Shown piece after piece: positions 15,451-24,476 of a stretch of 28,946 nucleotides of DNA. The stretch comes from Candidatus Hermodarchaeum yapensis. GTDB lineage: Archaea > Asgardarchaeota > Hermodarchaeia > Hermodarchaeales > Hermodarchaeaceae. The notes beneath the pieces were generated by a model. That model searched no databases, was not told the origin of the DNA, and worked only from the letters and a program-made list of their open reading frames with translations. Both the position numbers and the translations under genes were made by a program. Position 1 is the stretch's first letter. Each line of letters opens with the position of its first letter. The stretch spans positions 1 to 28,946 of the forward strand of contig JAEOSK010000032.1 of NCBI GenBank assembly GCA_016840405.1, read 5' to 3'.

Positions 15451-15719
15451 ACTTGGAGCCTCGAGTGTTTCTCGTTTCTCTTTGATTTGTAGAAGGAGAT
15501 ATAAACTCGTTAAGTTCGACGCAATTTACTACTCATACAACCAAGGACTTTGAGAATAAAGTTTGTAACTTGAAATTTTGAGAGTAATAACTAGTTGCTC
15601 AGAGAACTAGTACTTAACAAAACAGAGTGGTAACACTAATTTTGAACATCCCGATGCCCCACAACCCCACTTATCGCCGACTCTCCTTCGCCCTTAAATC
15701 TCATTGTCCCCTAATTCGA

Positions 15720-15835
15720 AACGACCCACGGGTTCTCTGACAGTGAGTTTCCCTTCGGTCAATCGACCGAAAGTTGGTCGAAAAGCAGTCCCGAAAGCCC
15801 TTCGGGGTAGATGGGATAGAGGGTGTAGGGTTACA
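15720..15835 (+). ncRNA. Candidate ~115-nt structured ncRNA (family unknown)
   Basis: Closing stems GACCCAC/GU(A)GGGUU and UUCUCUG/UAGAGGG; hairpin UUCGGUC-AAUC-GACCGAA; GUCCC-GAAA-GCCC-UUCG-GGGU-AGAU-GGGAU with a cUUCGg tetraloop; CTTAAAT TATA-like box at 15693-15699. Confidence 0.55.
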
Positions 15836-15899
15836 CATAGATTCAGTGGCTATTTGATTCAAATAGGTCACAGAATTAAATGAAAATAGTTGAAAAATA

Positions 15900-16463
15900 C
15901 TATTCTCGATAACCTAGGTCCTTGGAAGCCTCAGCCAGTTCCGATTGTTCGATGCGAATTTTTCGTATCATTTGTCGGAGCTGGCCTTTGAGTTTCTCGA
16001 CTTCATTGTCGAAGCCAAAATAGTCGGCGAACATCTCAGTTGTAGTGAGTTCTTTTGTCCGTCCAACTGGTGTGGTCTCGATGAAGCCATGGGCTTCGAG
16101 GGTTTTGATATGTTTGTAACTGTGCGAGCCACGATAAATGACAACGTTTGATTGAAGAATGGGTTGTGATAGGGCAATGTAGATGAGCGTTTTGAGTTCT
16201 CCCAATGAGAGTAGGCCTTGGGGAGCCAGTTTGCCTACTTCTTCGCTTAATTGGGGATCTAATTGTAGAACATAGCGCTGACGTGGAAGGCGAACGATTT
16301 CGAGTGCACCTTTTCTTGACATGTAATCATCTGCTAGCTGCTGAATGATTTCACGCACTCGTTTTAATGTAGGAATCTGGGTGACTTGTTGGATTTCATG
16401 AATTGAGAGCGGACGTCCAGAGATGTAGAGAGCAGCTTCTACTAAGCGCGTTTCCTCGTCCAC
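15900..16463 (-). CDS. scpB: Segregation/condensation protein ScpB (kite)
   Basis: VEAALYISGRPLS, LKTLIYIALSQPI, YRG..SYKHI..L, TTEMFADYFG. Confidence 0.94.
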   Translation of the reverse strand: MDEETRLVEAALYISGRPLSIHEIQQVTQIPTLKRVREIIQQLADDYMSRKGALEIVRLPRQRYVLQLDPQLSEEVGKLAPQGLLSLGELKTLIYIALSQPILQSNVVIYRGSHSYKHIKTLEAHGFIETTPVGRTKELTTTEMFADYFGFDNEVEKLKGQLRQMIRKIRIEQSELAEASKDLGYRE

Positions 16464-16476
16464 TCACTATAACCTC

Positions 16477-17163
16477 CTAACTGTGAGGCTCCTGTACCCA
16501 GATTTGTATATCTCCAAATTCTTGTTCCTGGATAATGCGAATTTTTCCATCACTCAATAGATATAGAAGGCTCAAAAAAAATCGAACAACATCAACATGA
16601 GACATGCCTTTTGCGAATTCAAAAAAGGATATCGTGATTTGGTCACGACTAGCTTCACATAATTGTGAATAGATTTGTTTCATTGACTTTGTGAGTTCTA
16701 CATGAGATATATCGAGTTGTGGAATAAGGATTGGTGTAATTTCCGATTTTGCTCTTCGTCGAGAATACTTTTTCGGAGGGAACACGAGTTCCCGGAGAGC
16801 CTCCAAGAATTCAGCTGACGAAGTCGGGCGAATATTCCGTCGAAAGGGCGGGCGAATAGGAGGAAGGAAGATGTCTTCTTCGATCACCCGAATAATTTCT
16901 TCTTCCTCTCGCCCAAATTCAAGCAAATATTCTGTCTTGAGACGGAGGAGTATGGCTGCTGAGAGGAGAGCACGACCACAGATACGAAAGTCAATGTATT
17001 CAGCTGTGAGTAGACGCCCAATGAACCCGTTTACAAGCTCCGCTAGATCTAGTTCCCATGGACTGATTTTCTGTAGCTCAAGAATGTCTGTCAGAACCCG
17101 CCATGGTTGATGAAACCAAAAGGGTTCAGGGCTAGTTTCTGTCAATGGTGTGCTGTTCTCCAT
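16477..17163 (-). CDS. scpA: Kleisin ScpA
   Basis: PWELDL, GRALLSAAILLRLKT, FLSLLYL..GKI...QEQEFGDI; lies between smc and scpB. Confidence 0.92.
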   Translation of the reverse strand: MENSTPLTETSPEPFWFHQPWRVLTDILELQKISPWELDLAELVNGFIGRLLTAEYIDFRICGRALLSAAILLRLKTEYLLEFGREEEEIIRVIEEDIFLPPIRPPFRRNIRPTSSAEFLEALRELVFPPKKYSRRRAKSEITPILIPQLDISHVELTKSMKQIYSQLCEASRDQITISFFEFAKGMSHVDVVRFFLSLLYLLSDGKIRIIQEQEFGDIQIWVQEPHS

Positions 17164-17233
17164 CGTTTAGATTTGTGTTTTGTAGTATCTGATTAATGCA
17201 TCCTAAATAAAGTGATGTATTATAATGATTTCA

Positions 17234-20200
17234 CTAGGTTTGGGTTGCGCCCTCTATGAGTAAAAGGCCTTCCTCAAATTTGACTGAGAAGACCTTTGAT
17301 ACTCCATCAACCATTGCAACGCCCATTAGCGTCTGAGCTAGACGGATAGTAATTTCGTTGTGAGAGATTATTATGAATTGTGAATTCTGTGAGAGGTTTT
17401 CAATGAGTTTCGCGACTCGGTCAGCATTATTTGGATCGAGTGCTTCGTCAATTTCATCAAGGAAATAAAATGGTGCAGGTTGATGGAGTTGTAAGGCAAA
17501 CATGAAGGTTAAAGCAGTAAGAGCTTTTTCACCACCTGATAATGCGTCGAGATATTGGATACGTTTTCCTGCAGGACGAACCTTCATTCTAATCCCGCCG
17601 AGAAATGGGTTTTCAGGATTCTCTAATTCAAGGTATCCCTCACCCTGAGTGAGTTTCTGATATACATCAGTGAAATTATGTGAGATGCTACTAAATGCCG
17701 CCATGAATACGCGGAACTTCTCTTCTTCCGCCTTTCGCATTGCATCCAGTATGGCTTCGCGTTCTTCTCGAACCCGACGTTCTTTTTCTAATATTTCGTC
17801 GAAGGCATGACGAATTTCCTCGAAGCGTTCAACTGCCTTTTGGTTTATAAGCCCCAGTTGTTCACGTTCCTGTTGTAAGGTTGTAATCTCTCTTCGTAAT
17901 GTGTGAACCAAAGAAGGTTCAATTGGTAGATCAGGTGGTTCCAACCCCGCTACATTTTTCTTTTGGGCAGCGTAGCGTTCTTCCCAGTTTTCAATACGCC
18001 CTTCAACTCTTGATCGATTCATTTTTTCTTCGTTTATTTTCTCGAAGAGCTCATCAATAGTTGTATTCAATTGGCGCCCTTCGTTTTCATTGGCAACAAT
18101 TTGATTTTCGAGCTCACGCACCTGATCCTTTAGGTTCGAAATGATGGTTTCTAAAGACGCCAGTTCCAGTTGATTCTGTTGGATTTGCTTTTGATTCAGT
18201 TCAAGGTCAGTGTTGGTTTGTTTTAGTTCGCCTTTGGCATTATCTAGGTCTTCGGACACCCGTTTGAATTCGATTTTCGCGAGTCTTTCTTCTCCCGTTT
18301 TTTCACTTATTTCAAGTTGTGTATCGCGAAGTTGAGTTTCCAGTTCTTCGAGTTGAGACCTGATACCTGATAAATTGGGATCTAAAGTGCTTCGTTCTAA
18401 TTCTGATAGGGTTTTTTGAATGTCTTCACGTTTTTGAGTGAGGTCAGTGATTTCTGTTTGTTCTGTCTGGAGTTTTTCTTCAAGCGCTTTTTTCGCTAAC
18501 TCGTCACCTTTCAGAGATTCATGTAATTTGGTGATACTAGTTTTGAATATGTTCAATGACTCTTCTTGCTCTGTGACTACATCGACTGCTTGAGAATTCT
18601 TGATTCGTAATTTCTCGGTCACTTTTTGTTTTTCACGGATTTGATTTTCAAGTCCACCCAGTTCCTGTTTCCATTGATGGTGGTCCTTTTCTGTGCTTGT
18701 TTGTAATGCTCTTAGATCTTTGAGCTTCTTTTGTAATTCAGGAATTCGAGCTTCTTCTTCAAGGGTCAGAGAAGAAATGCCCTTGTAATGCCCTCCAGTT
18801 AATGTTCTATTTGATTCGACAACATCCCCATCAGTCGTAATTTTTCGAACACCTGGTGCTTTGATATTTCGTGCAATTTTCAAATCCTTAACAATGAGAG
18901 TCCGTCCAAACACGTATTCGAATGCTGGTCGGAATTTTTCATTAAACGTCAGTAAGTCAATAGCATTGCCTACTACGCCCTTTTGACGTTCTTTGAAGGT
19001 AAAGGTGTCTGTTTTGATTGAGCTGAGCGGAATGAAGGTTGCACGGCCCACTCGACTCTTCTTCAGGTGATCAATACATTTCGTTGCAATTTCTTCATCA
19101 TCCACAACGATATAATCGAGCCGCCCTCCACCTGCAACTTCCAATGCAGTTGCATATTCTGTGGATGTTTGGCCTAAACTCCCAAGAGTTCCATATACGC
19201 CTTTGATTTTATTTTCTTTCACATATTTGAGAACTGCGTCAGTTCCTGCTTTGCGTGTTAGTCCATATTTCTTGAACTCACGGATTGTCTTAAGCCGAGT
19301 TTGTGCTTCTAATAGTTCTTCCTTCGAAGCTTGAATTAATTGACCTAGTTCTTCTTGCTTACTCTGCTTTTCTACAACTTTCTTTTCCAGTTCTCGCTGT
19401 TGGTTAATAAGATCTGTAACTTCTGATTCGATAATTTGAAGTTCCTTTTCGAGACTTTTTTGTTCAGTTTGAGCCTCGAGGAGTGTCCGTTCTTGTTCTG
19501 GTAAAATCAGATAACTTTCATCAATTTGCTGCTTAAGGTCAGTGATTCCCTTTTCTGTAATCCGGCTTAGGGCCATTGTTTCGCCATGTTCACTTCTTTT
19601 TGTCTCTATTTGATCCGTAAGTGCAAGTGTTTCTTTTCGCAAACTAAGGTATTCAGCATCAGGTGCTGAGGTTTGTTTTGTTAGCTCTGATAGGCGATTC
19701 CGAAGGGGAGTAGTTTGCTCAATTAATTGAGTTTCTTGCGCCTTAAGCGTCTTAATTTCTGATTTTAGCTCTGTTTGGCGCGTTTTTTCTTCCGTGACTT
19801 GTGATTCGAGATGTGTCACACTTGCACCGAGTGAGTCGGCTTGTCGAGAGAGTTTTTCAGAGGCTACCTGTAATCCTTTGAGAATTTCATTTATGCGGGT
19901 AGTTTCAATTTCTTTCTGATGGAGTTGTTGATCCCAGTTTTTAATCTGTGTTCCATCAGTTTGAACACTTTGTTCAAGTTCAAGTTGTCGATCCTGCGCA
20001 TCTCGTCGTTGTTTCTCTAATTCTTTGATATTTTTTGTAAACTCTTTGTATTCTTCTTTAAACGCGTTCAATCTTCGTTCAATTCTGATTAATTCCGCGA
20101 AAACCAAATCTCGTTCGAGTTGAGCCAATCGTTCGGTAATTTCTCGCCATCGGAGTGCGTCTTTTCTATCCTTTTCTAACCGTGAATATTCTTGGCGAAT

Positions 20201-20797
20201 TTCTTCTGTACGCATTTGCACCATTTGAAGGTTCTGATCCACCTTCACTAACTCGCTTTCGATTTGTTGTTTCTTTTCATCAAAGACGGAAATACCGGCT
20301 ACACCTTCAACGATTTGGCGGATTTCTGGTGATGACATAGCAATAACATTTGCAAGTTCGTTTTGCATTATGATGTTGTGCCCCTCTGGATGCAGCCCGG
20401 CTACAGCAATCGTGTCGAGCATTTCAGTTCGAGTAACTCGTTTTCCACCTATTCGATATGCACTTATTCCAGTTTCATCCACTTCACGACTGATTGTTAC
20501 TTCATCGGCGTCAATTGGAAATTGACGATCTGTATTGTTAAAGAGAAGACTGACTCTGCATAGTTTTGCTGGTGAACCGCCTGCCCCACCATTAAATAAA
20601 AGTGAAGCAAAATTTTCTGCCCGAAGCGATTTACTGCTTAACCTTCCCATTACAAAACATACTGCGTCAAGAATATTGCTTTTCCCACAACCATTTTCGC
20701 CTACAATAGCAGTGAAGCCTTCACTGAGGTTTATTGTAGTTTTTCGTGGGCTGAAACTTTTGAATCCTTGAACGGAGATTTGCTGTAAATAAGCCAC
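17234..20797 (-). CDS. smc: Chromosome segregation ATPase Smc
   Basis: GFKSF, GENGCGKS, long coiled coils, hinge (GVYGTL..GRATFIPL), LSGGEK, FLDEID, ISH. Confidence 0.97.
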   Translation of the reverse strand: MAYLQQISVQGFKSFSPRKTTINLSEGFTAIVGENGCGKSNILDAVCFVMGRLSSKSLRAENFASLLFNGGAGGSPAKLCRVSLLFNNTDRQFPIDADEVTISREVDETGISAYRIGGKRVTRTEMLDTIAVAGLHPEGHNIIMQNELANVIAMSSPEIRQIVEGVAGISVFDEKKQQIESELVKVDQNLQMVQMRTEEIRQEYSRLEKDRKDALRWREITERLAQLERDLVFAELIRIERRLNAFKEEYKEFTKNIKELEKQRRDAQDRQLELEQSVQTDGTQIKNWDQQLHQKEIETTRINEILKGLQVASEKLSRQADSLGASVTHLESQVTEEKTRQTELKSEIKTLKAQETQLIEQTTPLRNRLSELTKQTSAPDAEYLSLRKETLALTDQIETKRSEHGETMALSRITEKGITDLKQQIDESYLILPEQERTLLEAQTEQKSLEKELQIIESEVTDLINQQRELEKKVVEKQSKQEELGQLIQASKEELLEAQTRLKTIREFKKYGLTRKAGTDAVLKYVKENKIKGVYGTLGSLGQTSTEYATALEVAGGGRLDYIVVDDEEIATKCIDHLKKSRVGRATFIPLSSIKTDTFTFKERQKGVVGNAIDLLTFNEKFRPAFEYVFGRTLIVKDLKIARNIKAPGVRKITTDGDVVESNRTLTGGHYKGISSLTLEEEARIPELQKKLKDLRALQTSTEKDHHQWKQELGGLENQIREKQKVTEKLRIKNSQAVDVVTEQEESLNIFKTSITKLHESLKGDELAKKALEEKLQTEQTEITDLTQKREDIQKTLSELERSTLDPNLSGIRSQLEELETQLRDTQLEISEKTGEERLAKIEFKRVSEDLDNAKGELKQTNTDLELNQKQIQQNQLELASLETIISNLKDQVRELENQIVANENEGRQLNTTIDELFEKINEEKMNRSRVEGRIENWEERYAAQKKNVAGLEPPDLPIEPSLVHTLRREITTLQQEREQLGLINQKAVERFEEIRHAFDEILEKERRVREEREAILDAMRKAEEEKFRVFMAAFSSISHNFTDVYQKLTQGEGYLELENPENPFLGGIRMKVRPAGKRIQYLDALSGGEKALTALTFMFALQLHQPAPFYFLDEIDEALDPNNADRVAKLIENLSQNSQFIIISHNEITIRLAQTLMGVAMVDGVSKVFSVKFEEGLLLIEGATQT

Positions 20798-20939
20798 AGG
20801 AACAACGCCTATCCTCTTACTTTTATAATTTGGTCAGACGCAGCAACAAAGGAAATCCTTCTAAAAAAAGTTCTCGAACTTCCTGTTTTCAAGTAAAAAA
20901 TGAGGATTTTTTGTATACCAACGCGAAAAGATGTCTTCC

Positions 20940-21320
20940 CTAGCTTTTACCAATTTTTTCTACAGCACCACGAAGACTCCGAATAATGAGACCTAAACTT
21001 GCTGCAGCATCTTTTCCAGCGATTGAAACAACTAGATTTTTTGAAGCTGTTACAGCTACAGTGTACCCTTTATTAGTTTCAAGGTAAAGGGCCTGTGTGG
21101 GGCCTTGATCCACAGCTTTGTTAACAGCTTTCGTTTCTTTCAAAAGTGCAACTACGCTTGATACAATCGCACCATGATCCATATCCCGTAGGGTTTGTCC
21201 AGCAACTACCTTTCCAGCACTAGAAGCTGCAATTATTCCTTCAAGTTCTGGAATAGTGTCCATGATTTCAGCGAGAATCAGTTCAACCTCTTTCTTTCCG
21301 AGCATGAAAGCCACACCCAT
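20940..21320 (-). CDS. Roadblock/LC7-fold protein (divergently transcribed)
   Basis: ELEGIIAASSAGKVVA...GPTQALYLETNKGYTV...ASLGLI roadblock pattern; start may be ATG at 21305. Confidence 0.75.
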   Translation of the reverse strand: MGVAFMLGKKEVELILAEIMDTIPELEGIIAASSAGKVVAGQTLRDMDHGAIVSSVVALLKETKAVNKAVDQGPTQALYLETNKGYTVAVTASKNLVVSIAGKDAAASLGLIIRSLRGAVEKIGKS

Positions 21321-21494
21321 CGCCAGGGTTATTTGGCAATAGTTCTTGCGCTAAAAGGGATTTGGTGTCTTTGTTTAAAAACTGTGCGCCGAGAGAAAAT
21401 ATCAGCAGATTTTTTCAATAGTTCTTTGGTAACTCCGAACAAGAGGGAACGTTTATAACTTTAATAGAGACCAACTAGTCAGTGGCTAGAGAGC

Positions 21495-21791
21495 GTGGAG
21501 TATATGATTGGTGGTAAAGCATTAAAAGACTCACTGAAACGCCTTGGTGCCCATGACGGCGTTCGAGGCGTAATCATTACTAACATGGAAGGTTTGCCAA
21601 TCAGCTCCAATCTTAACGCAGAAAAAACCGAAGTTATCTCTGCGCTCGTTACATCGCTAGTTGGCAAAGCTAAACGCGTTGTTGACGAGCTTGGTGAAGG
21701 CGGCATGAACTTCCTCACAATTTCAACCCCAGCCGGGGAGGTTATGGTCGCCCCAGAGGAAGATTACATACTCATAGTTCTTCGAGGCTGA
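21495..21791 (+). CDS. Roadblock protein, dynein light chain DYNLRB-like
   Basis: LKRL..GV.G.I..N.EG.PI.S...KA...FL.I...E.MVAP..DY.LIV follows the eukaryotic DYNLRB pattern (comparison from memory). Confidence 0.88.
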
Positions 21792-21911
21792 AGTACCGTT
21801 ACTTTCTGCTCTACGAAAAAACGCCAAAACCCCCACGTTCTTCCACGCAAAAGATATAAGTTGCCCCTCGAATGGTAACTCCCGCAAGCCCCTGGTGGAA
21901 AGGGATTAACC

Positions 21912-22382
21912 TTGTCAATAACCGTAAGACAGTTTGATGAAATCCTCTCTGATGTGATTAAAAGCGAACCCGGAATCAAGAAAACTATTCTTGTAGATCG
22001 TACGGGCTTGACTATTGCTCATGTCTCAAAATTTAGTTATTACCCAGTCGACGTCGATGGAATTGGCGCGATAGCTAGCGCAGTATTTTGTGCGAGTGAA
22101 GAACAGGGTAAAAGTCTAGATGTCGGAGATTTGACGATTGTGACATCAGAGTTCGGTGATGGAAAAATATTCGCAGCAGGTGCCGGCAAAGGCGTATTGT
22201 GTGTAATCACTGATAAAGAAGTGAACATCGGTATGATACGCCTAACAATGATGAAAGCTGCAGCCGAGCTTGCGAAAGTATTAGATGAATTCATGGCCGA
22301 AAAACCAGCTGTTGCAGCGGGTAAAACTGACGCAGAGCGTGAGGAGCTGCGTGCAGCGCTTGGTGAACTTGAGAAAGGCTAG
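21912..22382 (+). CDS. MglB-like roadblock protein with a C-terminal helical extension
   Basis: ILVDRTGLTIA, IGAIASAVF, VNIGMIR; directly upstream of mglA; extra linker and helix DAEREELRAALGELEKG. Confidence 0.85.
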   Translation: MSITVRQFDEILSDVIKSEPGIKKTILVDRTGLTIAHVSKFSYYPVDVDGIGAIASAVFCASEEQGKSLDVGDLTIVTSEFGDGKIFAAGAGKGVLCVITDKEVNIGMIRLTMMKAAAELAKVLDEFMAEKPAVAAGKTDAEREELRAALGELEKG

Positions 22383-22427
22383 TGGGGACGGGGTAGGCGC
22401 AACACGAAAAGGAGGAGCCGTCCTACT

Positions 22428-23015
22428 TTGAAGAAAGACCTACAAGGCAGAATACATTTCAAAATCGTCTTTTGGGGACCTTCACTATCTGGAAAGACTA
22501 CTGCACTCCGTTGGATTTATGATAACGTAGAAGGGCTAAATAAAGGCGGATTCACCTCCGTAGCTGACCATACCGGTCGCACACTCTTTTTTGATTACAC
22601 CCCAATGCAAGCTACAGCTCAAGTTGTATTTGATGTGTATACTGTTGCAGGTCAACGTCGACATAGAGGACAGCGAAAGGTCATTTTGACTGGGGTAGAT
22701 GGGATTATTTTTGTGGCGGATTCTTCCCCTGATCAAATGGAAGCAAATATTGAAAGCATGGCAGAACTTCGGTCATTTGTTGAAGAAGACCTTGGACACT
22801 CAATCAGCCTTGTTGTCATGCTGAACAAACAGGATTTACCGAATGCCATGGATAAAGCAGTCATGCTAGCAAAACTTGGGCTAGGAAACGCTCCTAATTT
22901 TACGACATGTGCTCTTACGGGTGAAAACGTGAAACGATCCTTTCGGCAAGTTACTCGCGATATCTTGATGTACCATTTGTACCCTAAGGCATCTGCAACA
23001 GCTTCAACGAGTTAG
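22428..23015 (+). CDS. mglA: MglA-family small GTPase
   Basis: KIVFWGPSLSGKTT (G1), RTLFFD (G2 with the intrinsic Arg), YTVAGQ (G3), GVDGIIFVADS, NKQD (G4), TCA (G5). Confidence 0.9.
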   Translation: MKKDLQGRIHFKIVFWGPSLSGKTTALRWIYDNVEGLNKGGFTSVADHTGRTLFFDYTPMQATAQVVFDVYTVAGQRRHRGQRKVILTGVDGIIFVADSSPDQMEANIESMAELRSFVEEDLGHSISLVVMLNKQDLPNAMDKAVMLAKLGLGNAPNFTTCALTGENVKRSFRQVTRDILMYHLYPKASATASTS

Positions 23016-23022
23016 AGCGAAA

Positions 23023-23406
23023 TTGATGATTCCGAGTTCACCAGAAATTGAAAAAATTCTGGCAAATTTAACTGAGTCAGTCGATGAGATTGAGGCAGCC
23101 GTTGTTGTTGGTGTCGATGGGCTTCCAATCGCAGCCAAACTCCCTGAAGAATTTGATGAAACACTTTTAGCAGCAATGAGTGCAGCCTTGCTCACAGTAG
23201 GAGAACGCGCAGCATCAGATTTAGGTAAAGGCGCGCTTCATCAGGTCTTTGCTCAGGGTGGAACGGGAGCTGTTATAATGGTTGCAGCAGGACCTGACTC
23301 AGTTCTGATGGTGAGCACCACAACAGCATCACTTGCTGGTCTTGGTCTAGTTTTCATTAATATGGAAAGAGCTGCACAGAAAATTGCCAAGAAATTAGAC
23401 CGATAG
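23023..23406 (+). CDS. Roadblock/LC7 (MglB-type) protein
   Basis: IEAAVVVGVDGLPIAA, LAAMSAALL..GERAA..LGKG.L.QV..QG..G, LGLVF. Confidence 0.9.
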   Translation: MMIPSSPEIEKILANLTESVDEIEAAVVVGVDGLPIAAKLPEEFDETLLAAMSAALLTVGERAASDLGKGALHQVFAQGGTGAVIMVAAGPDSVLMVSTTTASLAGLGLVFINMERAAQKIAKKLDR

Positions 23407-23632
23407 GTGACATCCTCCCTCCCTTGAGAGAAGGGCTTTGGACTGTTCCTTCGGGTTACGCTCGTCGCCGAGGCGCGTTTGGCCCGAAACTTGCCAGGTT
23501 CTGACGCTGTTCCGCCCCACACCGGCCCCTTAGGCAGGGAAATTTCTTGCACATGCCGGAGGGGGCATCATCTGCGTAGATGCCGCCCTGCCACGTAATG
23601 CCTGGTGTATATGACTCCAGTCGGGCATATCT
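23407..23632 (-). ncRNA. Candidate ~225-nt GC-rich structured ncRNA (family unknown; strand most likely minus)
   Basis: About 59% GC by hand count; several helices (GGCAUC/GAUGCC, GCCCC..CCGGC/GCCGG..GGGGC, UUUCGGG/CCCGAAG, CCCUU/AAGGG); TTTATAG box at 23652-23658; shares a motif with the 15.7-kb element. Confidence 0.55.
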
Positions 23633-23798
23633 AGGTCTGTTACTCTAAATCCTATAAACACCGCGATTTATTTGCCCACCTGATGGCAAAAGGCTTCTCG
23701 CCGACAAAGTTAAATTCAGACTGGCAAGATTGAGTCTTAAGCGGGAATTCTGTTATCATCTTCTTAGAACGGAAAGAATACAAGGAGTACGAACAATT

Positions 23799-24476
23799 GT
23801 GAAAGTACTTGTGACAGGTCCGCATCTTTCTGGAAAAAGTGCACTAATTCAAGGCTTAGCAAAAGGCAACGTCATCAACATTCAAGCAAATGGTACAACC
23901 GTCGGGCTTGACCACGGAGTGGCAGAGGCGTTTAAGATCCCAATCCGATTGTTTGGGACACCGGGTTTAGCTCGATTTAAAGTCCTGCGTAGGATAATTT
24001 CAGAAGGCGCTGATGGTATTCTTTTTGTTGTTGATGCGAGTAACCCTGAAGGGGATGGAGAGGCACGATATATTTGGACTGAGATCAGTGACTTGCTACC
24101 AAACGTACCTTGTATTGTCGCAGCAAATAAACAGGACCTGACTGATTCGAGAACACCGGAAAGAATTCGCCATGACTTGAGTTTTATGGTTGGAGTTCCA
24201 GTAATTCCGATTAGTTGCAAAACAGACTATAATTTGGAAAAGCTCCTGCCAGCCATGGTTATGCTCATCACCTATGAATGGAGCCCCATTTTACGAGCTT
24301 TTGGAGCAACCGGAGAAACCAGCTTCGCAGACTTAGCCAAGAGTCTCCGAATAAGAGAAACCAAAGTGCGGGGCTATCTGCGATGGTTTGAACTGCGGAA
24401 AATGGTATTTGCGGATTGGGAAAAGAAAACAGCCCATCTCGCTCCAGGAATCGCTAAAATCCTTGCTCAACGATAG
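23799..24476 (+). CDS. Small GTPase (MglA group 2/ATP_bind_1-like) with a putative C-terminal winged helix
   Basis: GPHLSGKS, TTVGLDHG, LFGTPGLARF, GILFVVDAS, ANKQD, ISC; C-terminal SFADLAKSLRIRETKVRGYLRWFELRKMV. GTG at 23799 with GGAG upstream preferred over 23730. Confidence 0.85.
   Translation: MKVLVTGPHLSGKSALIQGLAKGNVINIQANGTTVGLDHGVAEAFKIPIRLFGTPGLARFKVLRRIISEGADGILFVVDASNPEGDGEARYIWTEISDLLPNVPCIVAANKQDLTDSRTPERIRHDLSFMVGVPVIPISCKTDYNLEKLLPAMVMLITYEWSPILRAFGATGETSFADLAKSLRIRETKVRGYLRWFELRKMVFADWEKKTAHLAPGIAKILAQR

Follow-up and report, generated by a model that had tools for sequence, protein, structure and literature searches.

The DNA analysed here, called the window in the following, is a stretch of 28,946 nt (positions 1 to 28,946 of contig JAEOSK010000032.1, forward strand) from Candidatus Hermodarchaeum yapensis. 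The 2.7-Mb assembly of this genome (GCA_016840405.1), designated G000, is 86% complete; C numbers denote contigs. Two intergenic sites of the window are considered. Site 1 is located between an open reading frame (ORF) of 165 aa and scpB, downstream of the smc-scpA-scpB operon, and site 2 between a roadblock gene and a gene for a small GTPase, as recognised with Pfam. An initial annotation had assigned to these sites two members of one undescribed family of free-standing cellular RNAs with a common three-way junction. The intergenic position was confirmed for both, no ORF being contained wholly in either gap. ORFs of at least 60 aa wholly inside the elements defined below were not detected either, and a minus-strand frame of 99 aa (23253..23552) spans from the RNA body at site 2 into the roadblock gene. 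Instead of free-standing RNA genes, each site was found to harbor a mobile element of the IS200/IS605 type without tnpB. These elements, element 1 and element 2, and the types they represent, E1 and E2, are very probably internally deleted, protein-less derivatives of IS200/IS605 (IS1341/TnpB-type) elements, resembling PATEs and originating from two different lineages. They were considered mobile IS605-type elements because insertions are polymorphic with clean empty sites, the left ends are common to tnpB-bearing elements, and the right ends are of the kind found at the 3' end of tnpB. Coordinates are listed in Table 1.

When the own assembly was searched with 23395-23720 (minus strand), six E2 copies showing 79-100% identity were obtained on C18, C8, C76, C13, C67, and C14. 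The common unit comprises about 309 nt, starts with TTTAAC, ends in ..GGAGGATGTCAC, and contains, about 25 nt ahead of TATGCCCGACTGG, a conserved GTTTATAG box. One to five copies each are present in eight further species of the genus (at least 16 copies in sister species); no copy was found in the sister genus, and tnpB was found adjoining none of the copies of the genus. Most copies with a recognisable left end are preceded by TTTAA(C/T). The copy on C13 is missing in three relatives, G006, which is the closest one, G001, and G003. Their empty site reads ..TTTTAA|AGTGTTGC.., with the junction ..CCGCTTTTAA|AGTGTTGCTTTAACAGG.., and at the same site of G000 TTTTAA is followed by 304 nt (C...GTCAC) and then by AGTCTTGCTTTAACAGG (AGTCTTGC..). 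Mobility is shown by such clean empty sites, with insertion 3' of the pentanucleotide TTTAA and without duplication; inverted terminal repeats are also lacking. Since this pattern is the signature of the peel-and-paste elements of the IS200/IS605 group, E2 was assigned to that type.

The ends of element 2 pointed in the same direction. A profile of its left end detected at least 15 other left ends in the own genome (nhmmer), many of them followed by a tnpB start codon. The best matches outside the family had E values from 6e-6 to about 1e-2, the remainder being weaker. The aligned elements have a common order of features, TTTA(A/T), CGAGAAG, a hairpin, ATGAATCGCGG, a TTTAAATA box, about 25 nt, and the tnpB start ATGCTCAGAACCTTCCGGTATCGCC, and the E2 RNA starts where the tnpB ATG would stand. 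At the other side, the right ends of the own tnpB elements share GAA(G/A)C, a hairpin, and ..TAGTTCAC. E2 possesses the variant GAAGCCC, hairpin, and GGAGGATGTCAC, so that the layout GAAGCC, hairpin, ..CAC is common to E2 and TnpB right ends. The right-end part of R1, a covariance model of the E2 RNA with 232 positions and 41 pairs, gave weak best matches that coincide with the right end at about 10 of 19 tnpB loci. Homology to the ends of tnpB-bearing elements of the own genome was seen for the left end of E2 and, as described below, for the right end of E1; subterminal hairpins covary in both types.

The extent of element 1 was defined by comparison with G006, in which both flanks, 93% identical, are contiguous and 6 nt replace window positions 15554-15914 (361 nt), again without target duplication. 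The left flanks of E1 copies were too varied to define a target motif. The boundaries of element 1 are accurate to about 3 nt. The segment annotated initially, 15720-15835, is only part of a conserved unit reaching from about 15554 to about 15916. Blast searches (blastn) of the own genome with 15640-15900 gave 8 further matches, and four of these (C60, C40, C14, and C1) begin exactly where a match to the TnpB Zn-ribbon domain ends. In total, the genome contains five gene-less copies, including the one in the window, and four copies bearing tnpB; both kinds are also present in the relatives G003, G007, and G008. Between the 3' 140 nt of element 1 and the DNA that immediately follows the four tnpB genes, identity is 80-84%, and across species this module shows 76-84% identity. 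Element 1 is therefore directly homologous to a tnpB 3' end. The linked tnpB ORFs, two of which comprise 352 and 338 aa, specify OrfB_IS605 (E 1e-19) and TNB domains. Homology extends about 80 nt past the end annotated initially, to ..CGATAACCTA; up to this sequence the right end is kept in all nine own copies, and the flanks diverge beyond. In the TnpB frame the motif shared with element 2 reads ..NIGRKAVPEAF.., and in element 1 this reading frame is disrupted by an extra C.

The left-end block of E1 (CACTTATCGCC..CTCTCCT..) was seen by eye also upstream of tnpB in the C40 copy and was therefore taken as the probable promoter region of the element itself; blastn of the E1 left end against the left ends of full-length copies gave no match. 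A local RNAalifold prediction from 16 E1 copies revealed, besides the right-end hairpin, two internal hairpins and a GUCCCG/CGGGAU stem; a few of the pairs are compensatory.

Table 1. Features of elements 1 and 2 in the window
Feature	Position	Strand	Remarks
Element 1, IS200/IS605-type mini-element without tnpB (E1)	15554..15916	+	gap in G006; copies in own genome
E1 left-end block, ending in TATA-like CTTAAAT (15693-15699)	15668..15700	+	kept in 5 of 5 gene-less copies
Linker specific to gene-less copies, containing the initially annotated P1/P2	15720..15775	+	poorly conserved; TnpB coding sequence at this place in tnpB-bearing copies
Omega-RNA-type module: tnpB 3'-end homologue plus right end	15776..15916	+	homology to tnpB-linked DNA
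Shared motif CAGTCCCGAAAGCCCTTC in element 1	15786..15803	+	same bases encode TnpB ..GRKAVPEAF.. in tnpB-bearing copies
E1 subterminal right-end hairpin (15881-15908) and tail ATAACCTA	15881..15916	+	some compensatory pairs
Predicted E1 guide (flank read-through), antisense to scpB 3' end	15917..15936	+	predicted from TnpB omega-RNA architecture
Predicted E2 guide segment (flank)	23387..23406	-	predicted; flanks vary among copies
Element 2, IS200/IS605-type cassette without tnpB (E2), 303 nt	23407..23709	-	boundaries from C13 empty sites
Structured E2 RNA body	23407..23630	-	R1 249.5 bits; predicted start near 23630, end at right-end boundary
E2 right-end hairpin (23417-23436) and tail AGGATGTCAC (23407-23416)	23407..23436	-	6 of 8 hairpin pairs compensatory
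Shared motif CAGTCCAAAGCCCTTC in element 2	23430..23445	-	E2 family consensus A(A/C)AGTCC(G/A)AAGCCC
E2 TATA box TTTATA	23653..23658	-	corresponds to the TTTAAATA box of tnpB-bearing elements, about 25 nt ahead of the tnpB ATG
E2 left-end block: CGAGAAG, hairpin, ATAAATCGCGG	23661..23702	-	related to left ends of IS605-type elements
TTTAA, target or transposon-adjacent motif (TAM) 5' of element 2	23710..23714	-	retained in empty sites

The proposal of a single RNA family was based on the motif common to both sites, and this observation was correct. The window contains CAGTCC(N0-2)AAAGCCCTTC at exactly two positions (Table 1), with no occurrence expected from 100 shuffles. Other parts of the initial annotation were also borne out. 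TATA-like boxes are found about 25 nt before both proposed RNA starts, additional copies of both elements are present in the own genome and in relatives, and both elements are promoter-bearing, structured RNA modules without an adjoining protein gene. Rfam scans, performed for the whole window at the gathering threshold and for both element regions at E<=10, did not match either element. An exact 16-nt motif, the lack of an Rfam match, TATA boxes at both sites, and further copies would all be in line with one undescribed, free-standing cellular RNA family. Nevertheless, such a family is extremely improbable and was largely refuted. R1, run over the window with filters off, detected element 2 alone, leaving element 1 unmatched even at E<=10. 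The common three-way junction was not supported across copies: in element 2, the three inner pairs of P2 (UUUCGGG/CCCGAAG) do not form in 10-15 of 22 copies, covariation of this helix is not above that of shuffles, and other E1 copies do not retain the look-alike CUGACA and AGUUUC of element 1. Since R1 misses element 1 and the junction fails across copies, the elements represent two distinct RNA families of one known kind. The distance between motif and right end differs as well, with about 115 nt for E1 and about 25 nt for E2, in which the motif and the right-end hairpin overlap. In addition, both units are insertions with IS605-type ends, and one of them is homologous to tnpB 3' ends.

At the level of the families, the motif is reduced to about GUCC(C)GRAAGCC, that is, 11-12 nt with one gap, and by a rough estimate the chance of such a core between two 300-nt elements is about 5-10%. 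The perfect 16-nt match between the two copies is partly coincidence, and in E1 the motif doubles as TnpB coding sequence. The shared core is closed in both families by GUCC../..GGAU. It may reflect a shared architecture of right ends and omega-RNAs, with a GUCC..GGAU closing helix around GAAGCC; homology of the two cores is not demonstrable. An exact 14-nt direct repeat, GGGGTAGATGGGAT, at 15804-15817 directly after the motif of element 1 and at 22692-22705 in the ORF of an Arf-like GTPase is probably due to chance.

Other RNA classes were also considered. The elements, which the initial annotation could not match to SRP RNA or RNase P RNA, are neither of the two. The genuine genes for these RNAs are located on C24 (120.8 bits) and C17 (166.2 bits), respectively. 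The tRNA and tmRNA scan (ARAGORN) reported nothing for either site, and single-sequence folds, with z-scores of -1.9 and -1.6, were uninformative.

The RNA of element 2 was compared among 22 E2 copies from 8 genomes of the genus. Pairwise identity was highest for the right-end tail (0.84) and the RNA body (0.81-0.82), followed by the TATA box (0.74), the left end (0.51), and the spacer (0.45). In an alignment of 36 E2 sequences, fitted to R1, 91% of the cells pair and 19 of the 41 pairs show compensatory changes. None of 500 shuffles scored as high, and slid controls reached 38-61%. Covariation of this RNA, which the initial annotation had named as a test, was thus observed. Six copies without a recognisable left end still hold the TATA box and the RNA, and copies at the same site in different species retain the RNA as well. 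Several copies have flanks common to different species and are therefore old. Among 151 sampled Asgard genomes, the own genome and 150 others, homologues were detected with R1 in 18, belonging to seven genera. The distant homologues that were inspected end in GGGGAGGATGTCAC and are preceded by a TTTAAC-type left end, and no tnpB was found in their surroundings. The E2 RNA is under purifying selection. Its transcript ends are predicted ones.

From these data it appears quite improbable that the two elements are inert relics, i.e. decaying transposon remnants with functionless transcripts which are conserved merely by recent spread. Neutral decay predicts even identity, whereas the E2 RNA body (0.81) differs from spacer and left end (0.45-0.51). 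Retention of the RNA at the same sites in different species and in copies devoid of a left end, its recognition in seven genera with compensatory changes, and the similarity of the E1 module across species are likewise not expected of relics. The poorly conserved linker of element 1 and its broken tnpB frame would fit relics, as would two further observations: no Y1 TnpA (PF01797) was found in the 86%-complete assembly, and many of the own tnpB genes are truncated, with open frames of only 80-340 aa. An incomplete assembly does not show absence of TnpA, but with none found, present-day mobility is putative.

The last two observations also weigh against the interpretation of both elements as derivatives of TnpB-type elements, and they are not the only ones. 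A homologue of the E2 RNA linked to tnpB was found neither in the own genome nor in the 150 other Asgard genomes. In two complete genomes examined, 25 matches to the right-end motif GGGAGGATGTCAC were obtained, one mismatch being allowed. They consist of E2-type cassettes, seven terminal-only fusions of left and right end of about 46 nt, and a few unrelated chance matches; a TnpB C-terminus was not present within 1.5 kb of any of the 25. Searching with 28 TnpB C-termini (tblastn) did not reveal a TnpB coding remnant in E2 copies. The Rfam families similar to omega-RNAs (sotRNA RF02656/RF02657 and IS605-orfB motifs) were matched by neither element. Covariation in the right-end hairpin could serve a DNA hairpin recognised by the transposase rather than an RNA, and fitting the alignment to R1 is a caveat for the covariation test. 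Finally, contigs from two wetland metatranscriptome runs (5-6% of words), derived from relatives and 90-97% alike, cover smc, the roadblock genes, and the GTPase and do not cover E1 or E2, but absence of a transcript cannot be shown by such contigs, which speak neither for nor against transcription.

In elements of this group, the omega-RNA is transcribed inside the element and crosses the right end, the flank serving as guide; once TnpA has excised the element, the TAM-flanked empty donor joint is cleaved by TnpB, and the element is regained by recombination (PMC10055086, PMC10691335). PATEs originated from IS605-type elements by core deletion (PMC3119063) and often encode omega-RNAs needing TnpB in trans (PMC10055086), and standalone omega-RNAs act in trans, too (PMC10691335). 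Elements 1 and 2 would each have kept both ends, the left one including the promoter from which full-length copies express tnpB and the right one including the subterminal hairpin, and, in between, the structured RNA which in full-length elements overlaps the tnpB 3' end and crosses the right end into the flank (omega-RNA or reRNA). The RNAs are predicted to be transcribed from the TATA box and to carry about 16-20 nt of flank as guide. A TnpB encoded elsewhere in the genome could use them in trans and cut the empty donor site after excision, and the element would then be copied back.

For element 1, overlap with the tnpB 3' end, a stop at the right end, and continuation into the flank are indicated by homology. 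In element 2 it is the position relative to the right end that corresponds to this layout; as no TnpB remnant was found, its designation as an omega-RNA is suggested by position and end architecture. About 28 loci of the own genome exceed the Pfam cut-off for the TnpB Zn-ribbon domain. Candidate partners for element 1 are the ORFs of 352 aa (C1) and 338 aa (C14), and no candidate was identified for element 2. Intact TnpBs of about 390-424 aa are encoded on C59, C67, C36, C6, and C76. Homing by TnpB in trans was therefore inferred for E1, for which a cognate TnpB is encoded in the genome, and more weakly for E2, for which none was found. The bases of the predicted E1 guide are likewise found behind the junction in G006, where the site is empty. 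A second TAM-flanked target of either guide was not detected in the genome, the only matches being the own flank and chance matches with two mismatches and without TTTAA. Thus, homing fits better than regulation of genes.

For element 2, two more interpretations have to be weighed. Its RNA could be no TnpB guide at all but another functional RNA, either cargo or domesticated, which rides on IS605-type ends and has a different partner. It was never found beside tnpB in any genome examined, no TnpB coding remnant accompanies it, its scaffold is unlike those behind the own tnpB genes, it is conserved and selected at the level of the phylum, and for some copies the insertion site is fixed in different species. 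Nonetheless, this possibility is judged unlikely: like a TnpB guide, the RNA stops precisely at the right end and continues into flank that varies, the GAAGCC, hairpin, ..CAC layout of TnpB right ends recurs in its 3' domain, no other TAM-flanked site corresponds to its flanks, and standalone omega-RNAs have been described (PMC10691335). The other interpretation, to which a low probability was attached, regards E2 as an RNA-only mobile gene of about 225-350 nt in at least seven Asgard genera, always without tnpB, promoter-bearing, under purifying selection, and not engaged in ordinary homing in cis. Such an RNA might parasitise TnpBs of unrelated IS lineages, might have another protein partner, or might be domesticated at fixed loci.

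As deleted derivatives of IS200/IS605 elements, elements 1 and 2 are added members of a published class, the PATEs and standalone omega-RNAs (PMC3119063, PMC10055086, PMC10691335). PATEs are known from Haloquadratum walsbyi (PMC3119063), and PATE-like elements from Geobacillus stearothermophilus (PMC10055086). Similarities to these elements are numerous. There are no inverted terminal repeats and no target duplications, subterminal palindromes resemble those of IS605-type elements in the same genome, and several copies with strain- or species-specific insertions are present. Core deletion as the origin is shared as well, and the terminal-only forms of about 46 nt (G056, G071) parallel the 52-bp forms of Haloquadratum, for which the source of a TnpA is the same puzzle as here (PMC3119063). 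In contrast to PATEs, the elements described here reside in an Asgard host, E2 keeps a structured RNA of 225 nt with its own TATA box, selected across seven genera, and a tnpB-bearing parent of E2 was not found in the genomes examined. With the standalone omega-RNAs (Altae-Tran et al. 2021, summarised in PMC10691335) they share a mobilised RNA module that has neither effector nor transposase, the presence of effector-bearing loci elsewhere in the genome, and a guide position just beyond the transposon end; function in trans is, however, a prediction here, and no compatible effector was found for E2.

Comparison with the omega-RNAs or reRNAs of TnpB (IS605/IS1341, ISDra2 type) and the haloarchaeal sotRNAs (RF02656, RF02657; PMC12558985) showed that the module of element 1 is homologous to a tnpB 3' end plus right end and that its motif overlaps TnpB C-terminal codons, as in these sense-overlapping transcripts. 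Differences are the lack of tnpB in cis, the broken tnpB frame, and the unmatched Rfam models. Guides of TldR, a nuclease-dead TnpB repressor, are also TnpB-type guide RNAs retained at a fixed locus. TldR targets a host promoter elsewhere, though, whereas here no second TAM-flanked match exists and no TldR gene adjoins.

These results imply that Asgard "intergenic RNAs" of about 360 and 300 nt should be annotated as IS605-type mini-elements and not as new cellular RNA families. The own genome alone harbors six E2 and five E1 gene-less copies in addition to other cassette types. Of moderate interest is the phylum-wide E2 RNA never linked to tnpB. Being conserved and structured, it offers a tractable case for asking to what extent a guide RNA can persist separately from its nuclease, and which TnpB, if any, might use it.

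The insertions also had side effects on the host. Element 1 is inserted on the stop codon of scpB and has rewritten its last codons: ScpB ends in ..ASKDL* in G006 and in ..ASKDLGYRE* here (window 15900-15918), the new stop codon being part of the E1 right end. E2 copies are found at a synteny breakpoint, 23407-23730. In relatives without E2 at this place, the GTPase flank adjoins the right flank of C8:8819-9126 of G000, and the same junction is present in G007 (C315:2031-3328) across a degenerate E2. This arrangement points to a recombination event in the G000 lineage in which two E2 copies took part.

Further arrangements of E2 and related cassettes were noted. At C14:95567-96191 of G000, a tnpB element with the right end ..GGAGAGTGTCAA and an E2 copy are located tail to tail, 3 nt apart, so that the guide position of each reads the right end of the other; the orthologous E2 of G007 has no tnpB neighbour. 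In the terminal-only elements of about 46 nt (L128, L131, L135, L136, L137, L139, L143; G056, G071), TTTAAC and the start of the left end are joined directly to the right-end hairpin, with GGGGAGGATGTCAC behind it. Another family of cassettes apparently without tnpB is present in G000 at C14:111548, C3:55679, C76:58631, C57:9295, C3:7679, C73:34148, and C9:481. Its left end and TATA box resemble those of E2, but the RNA start behind them, GTGAGGTCCTAGTC..GGTCCGAGAACC, is different. In the surroundings of element 2 (20940-24476), roadblock/LC7 genes and genes for two small Arf/Ras-like GTPases, assigned by Pfam, are clustered beside smc-scpAB.

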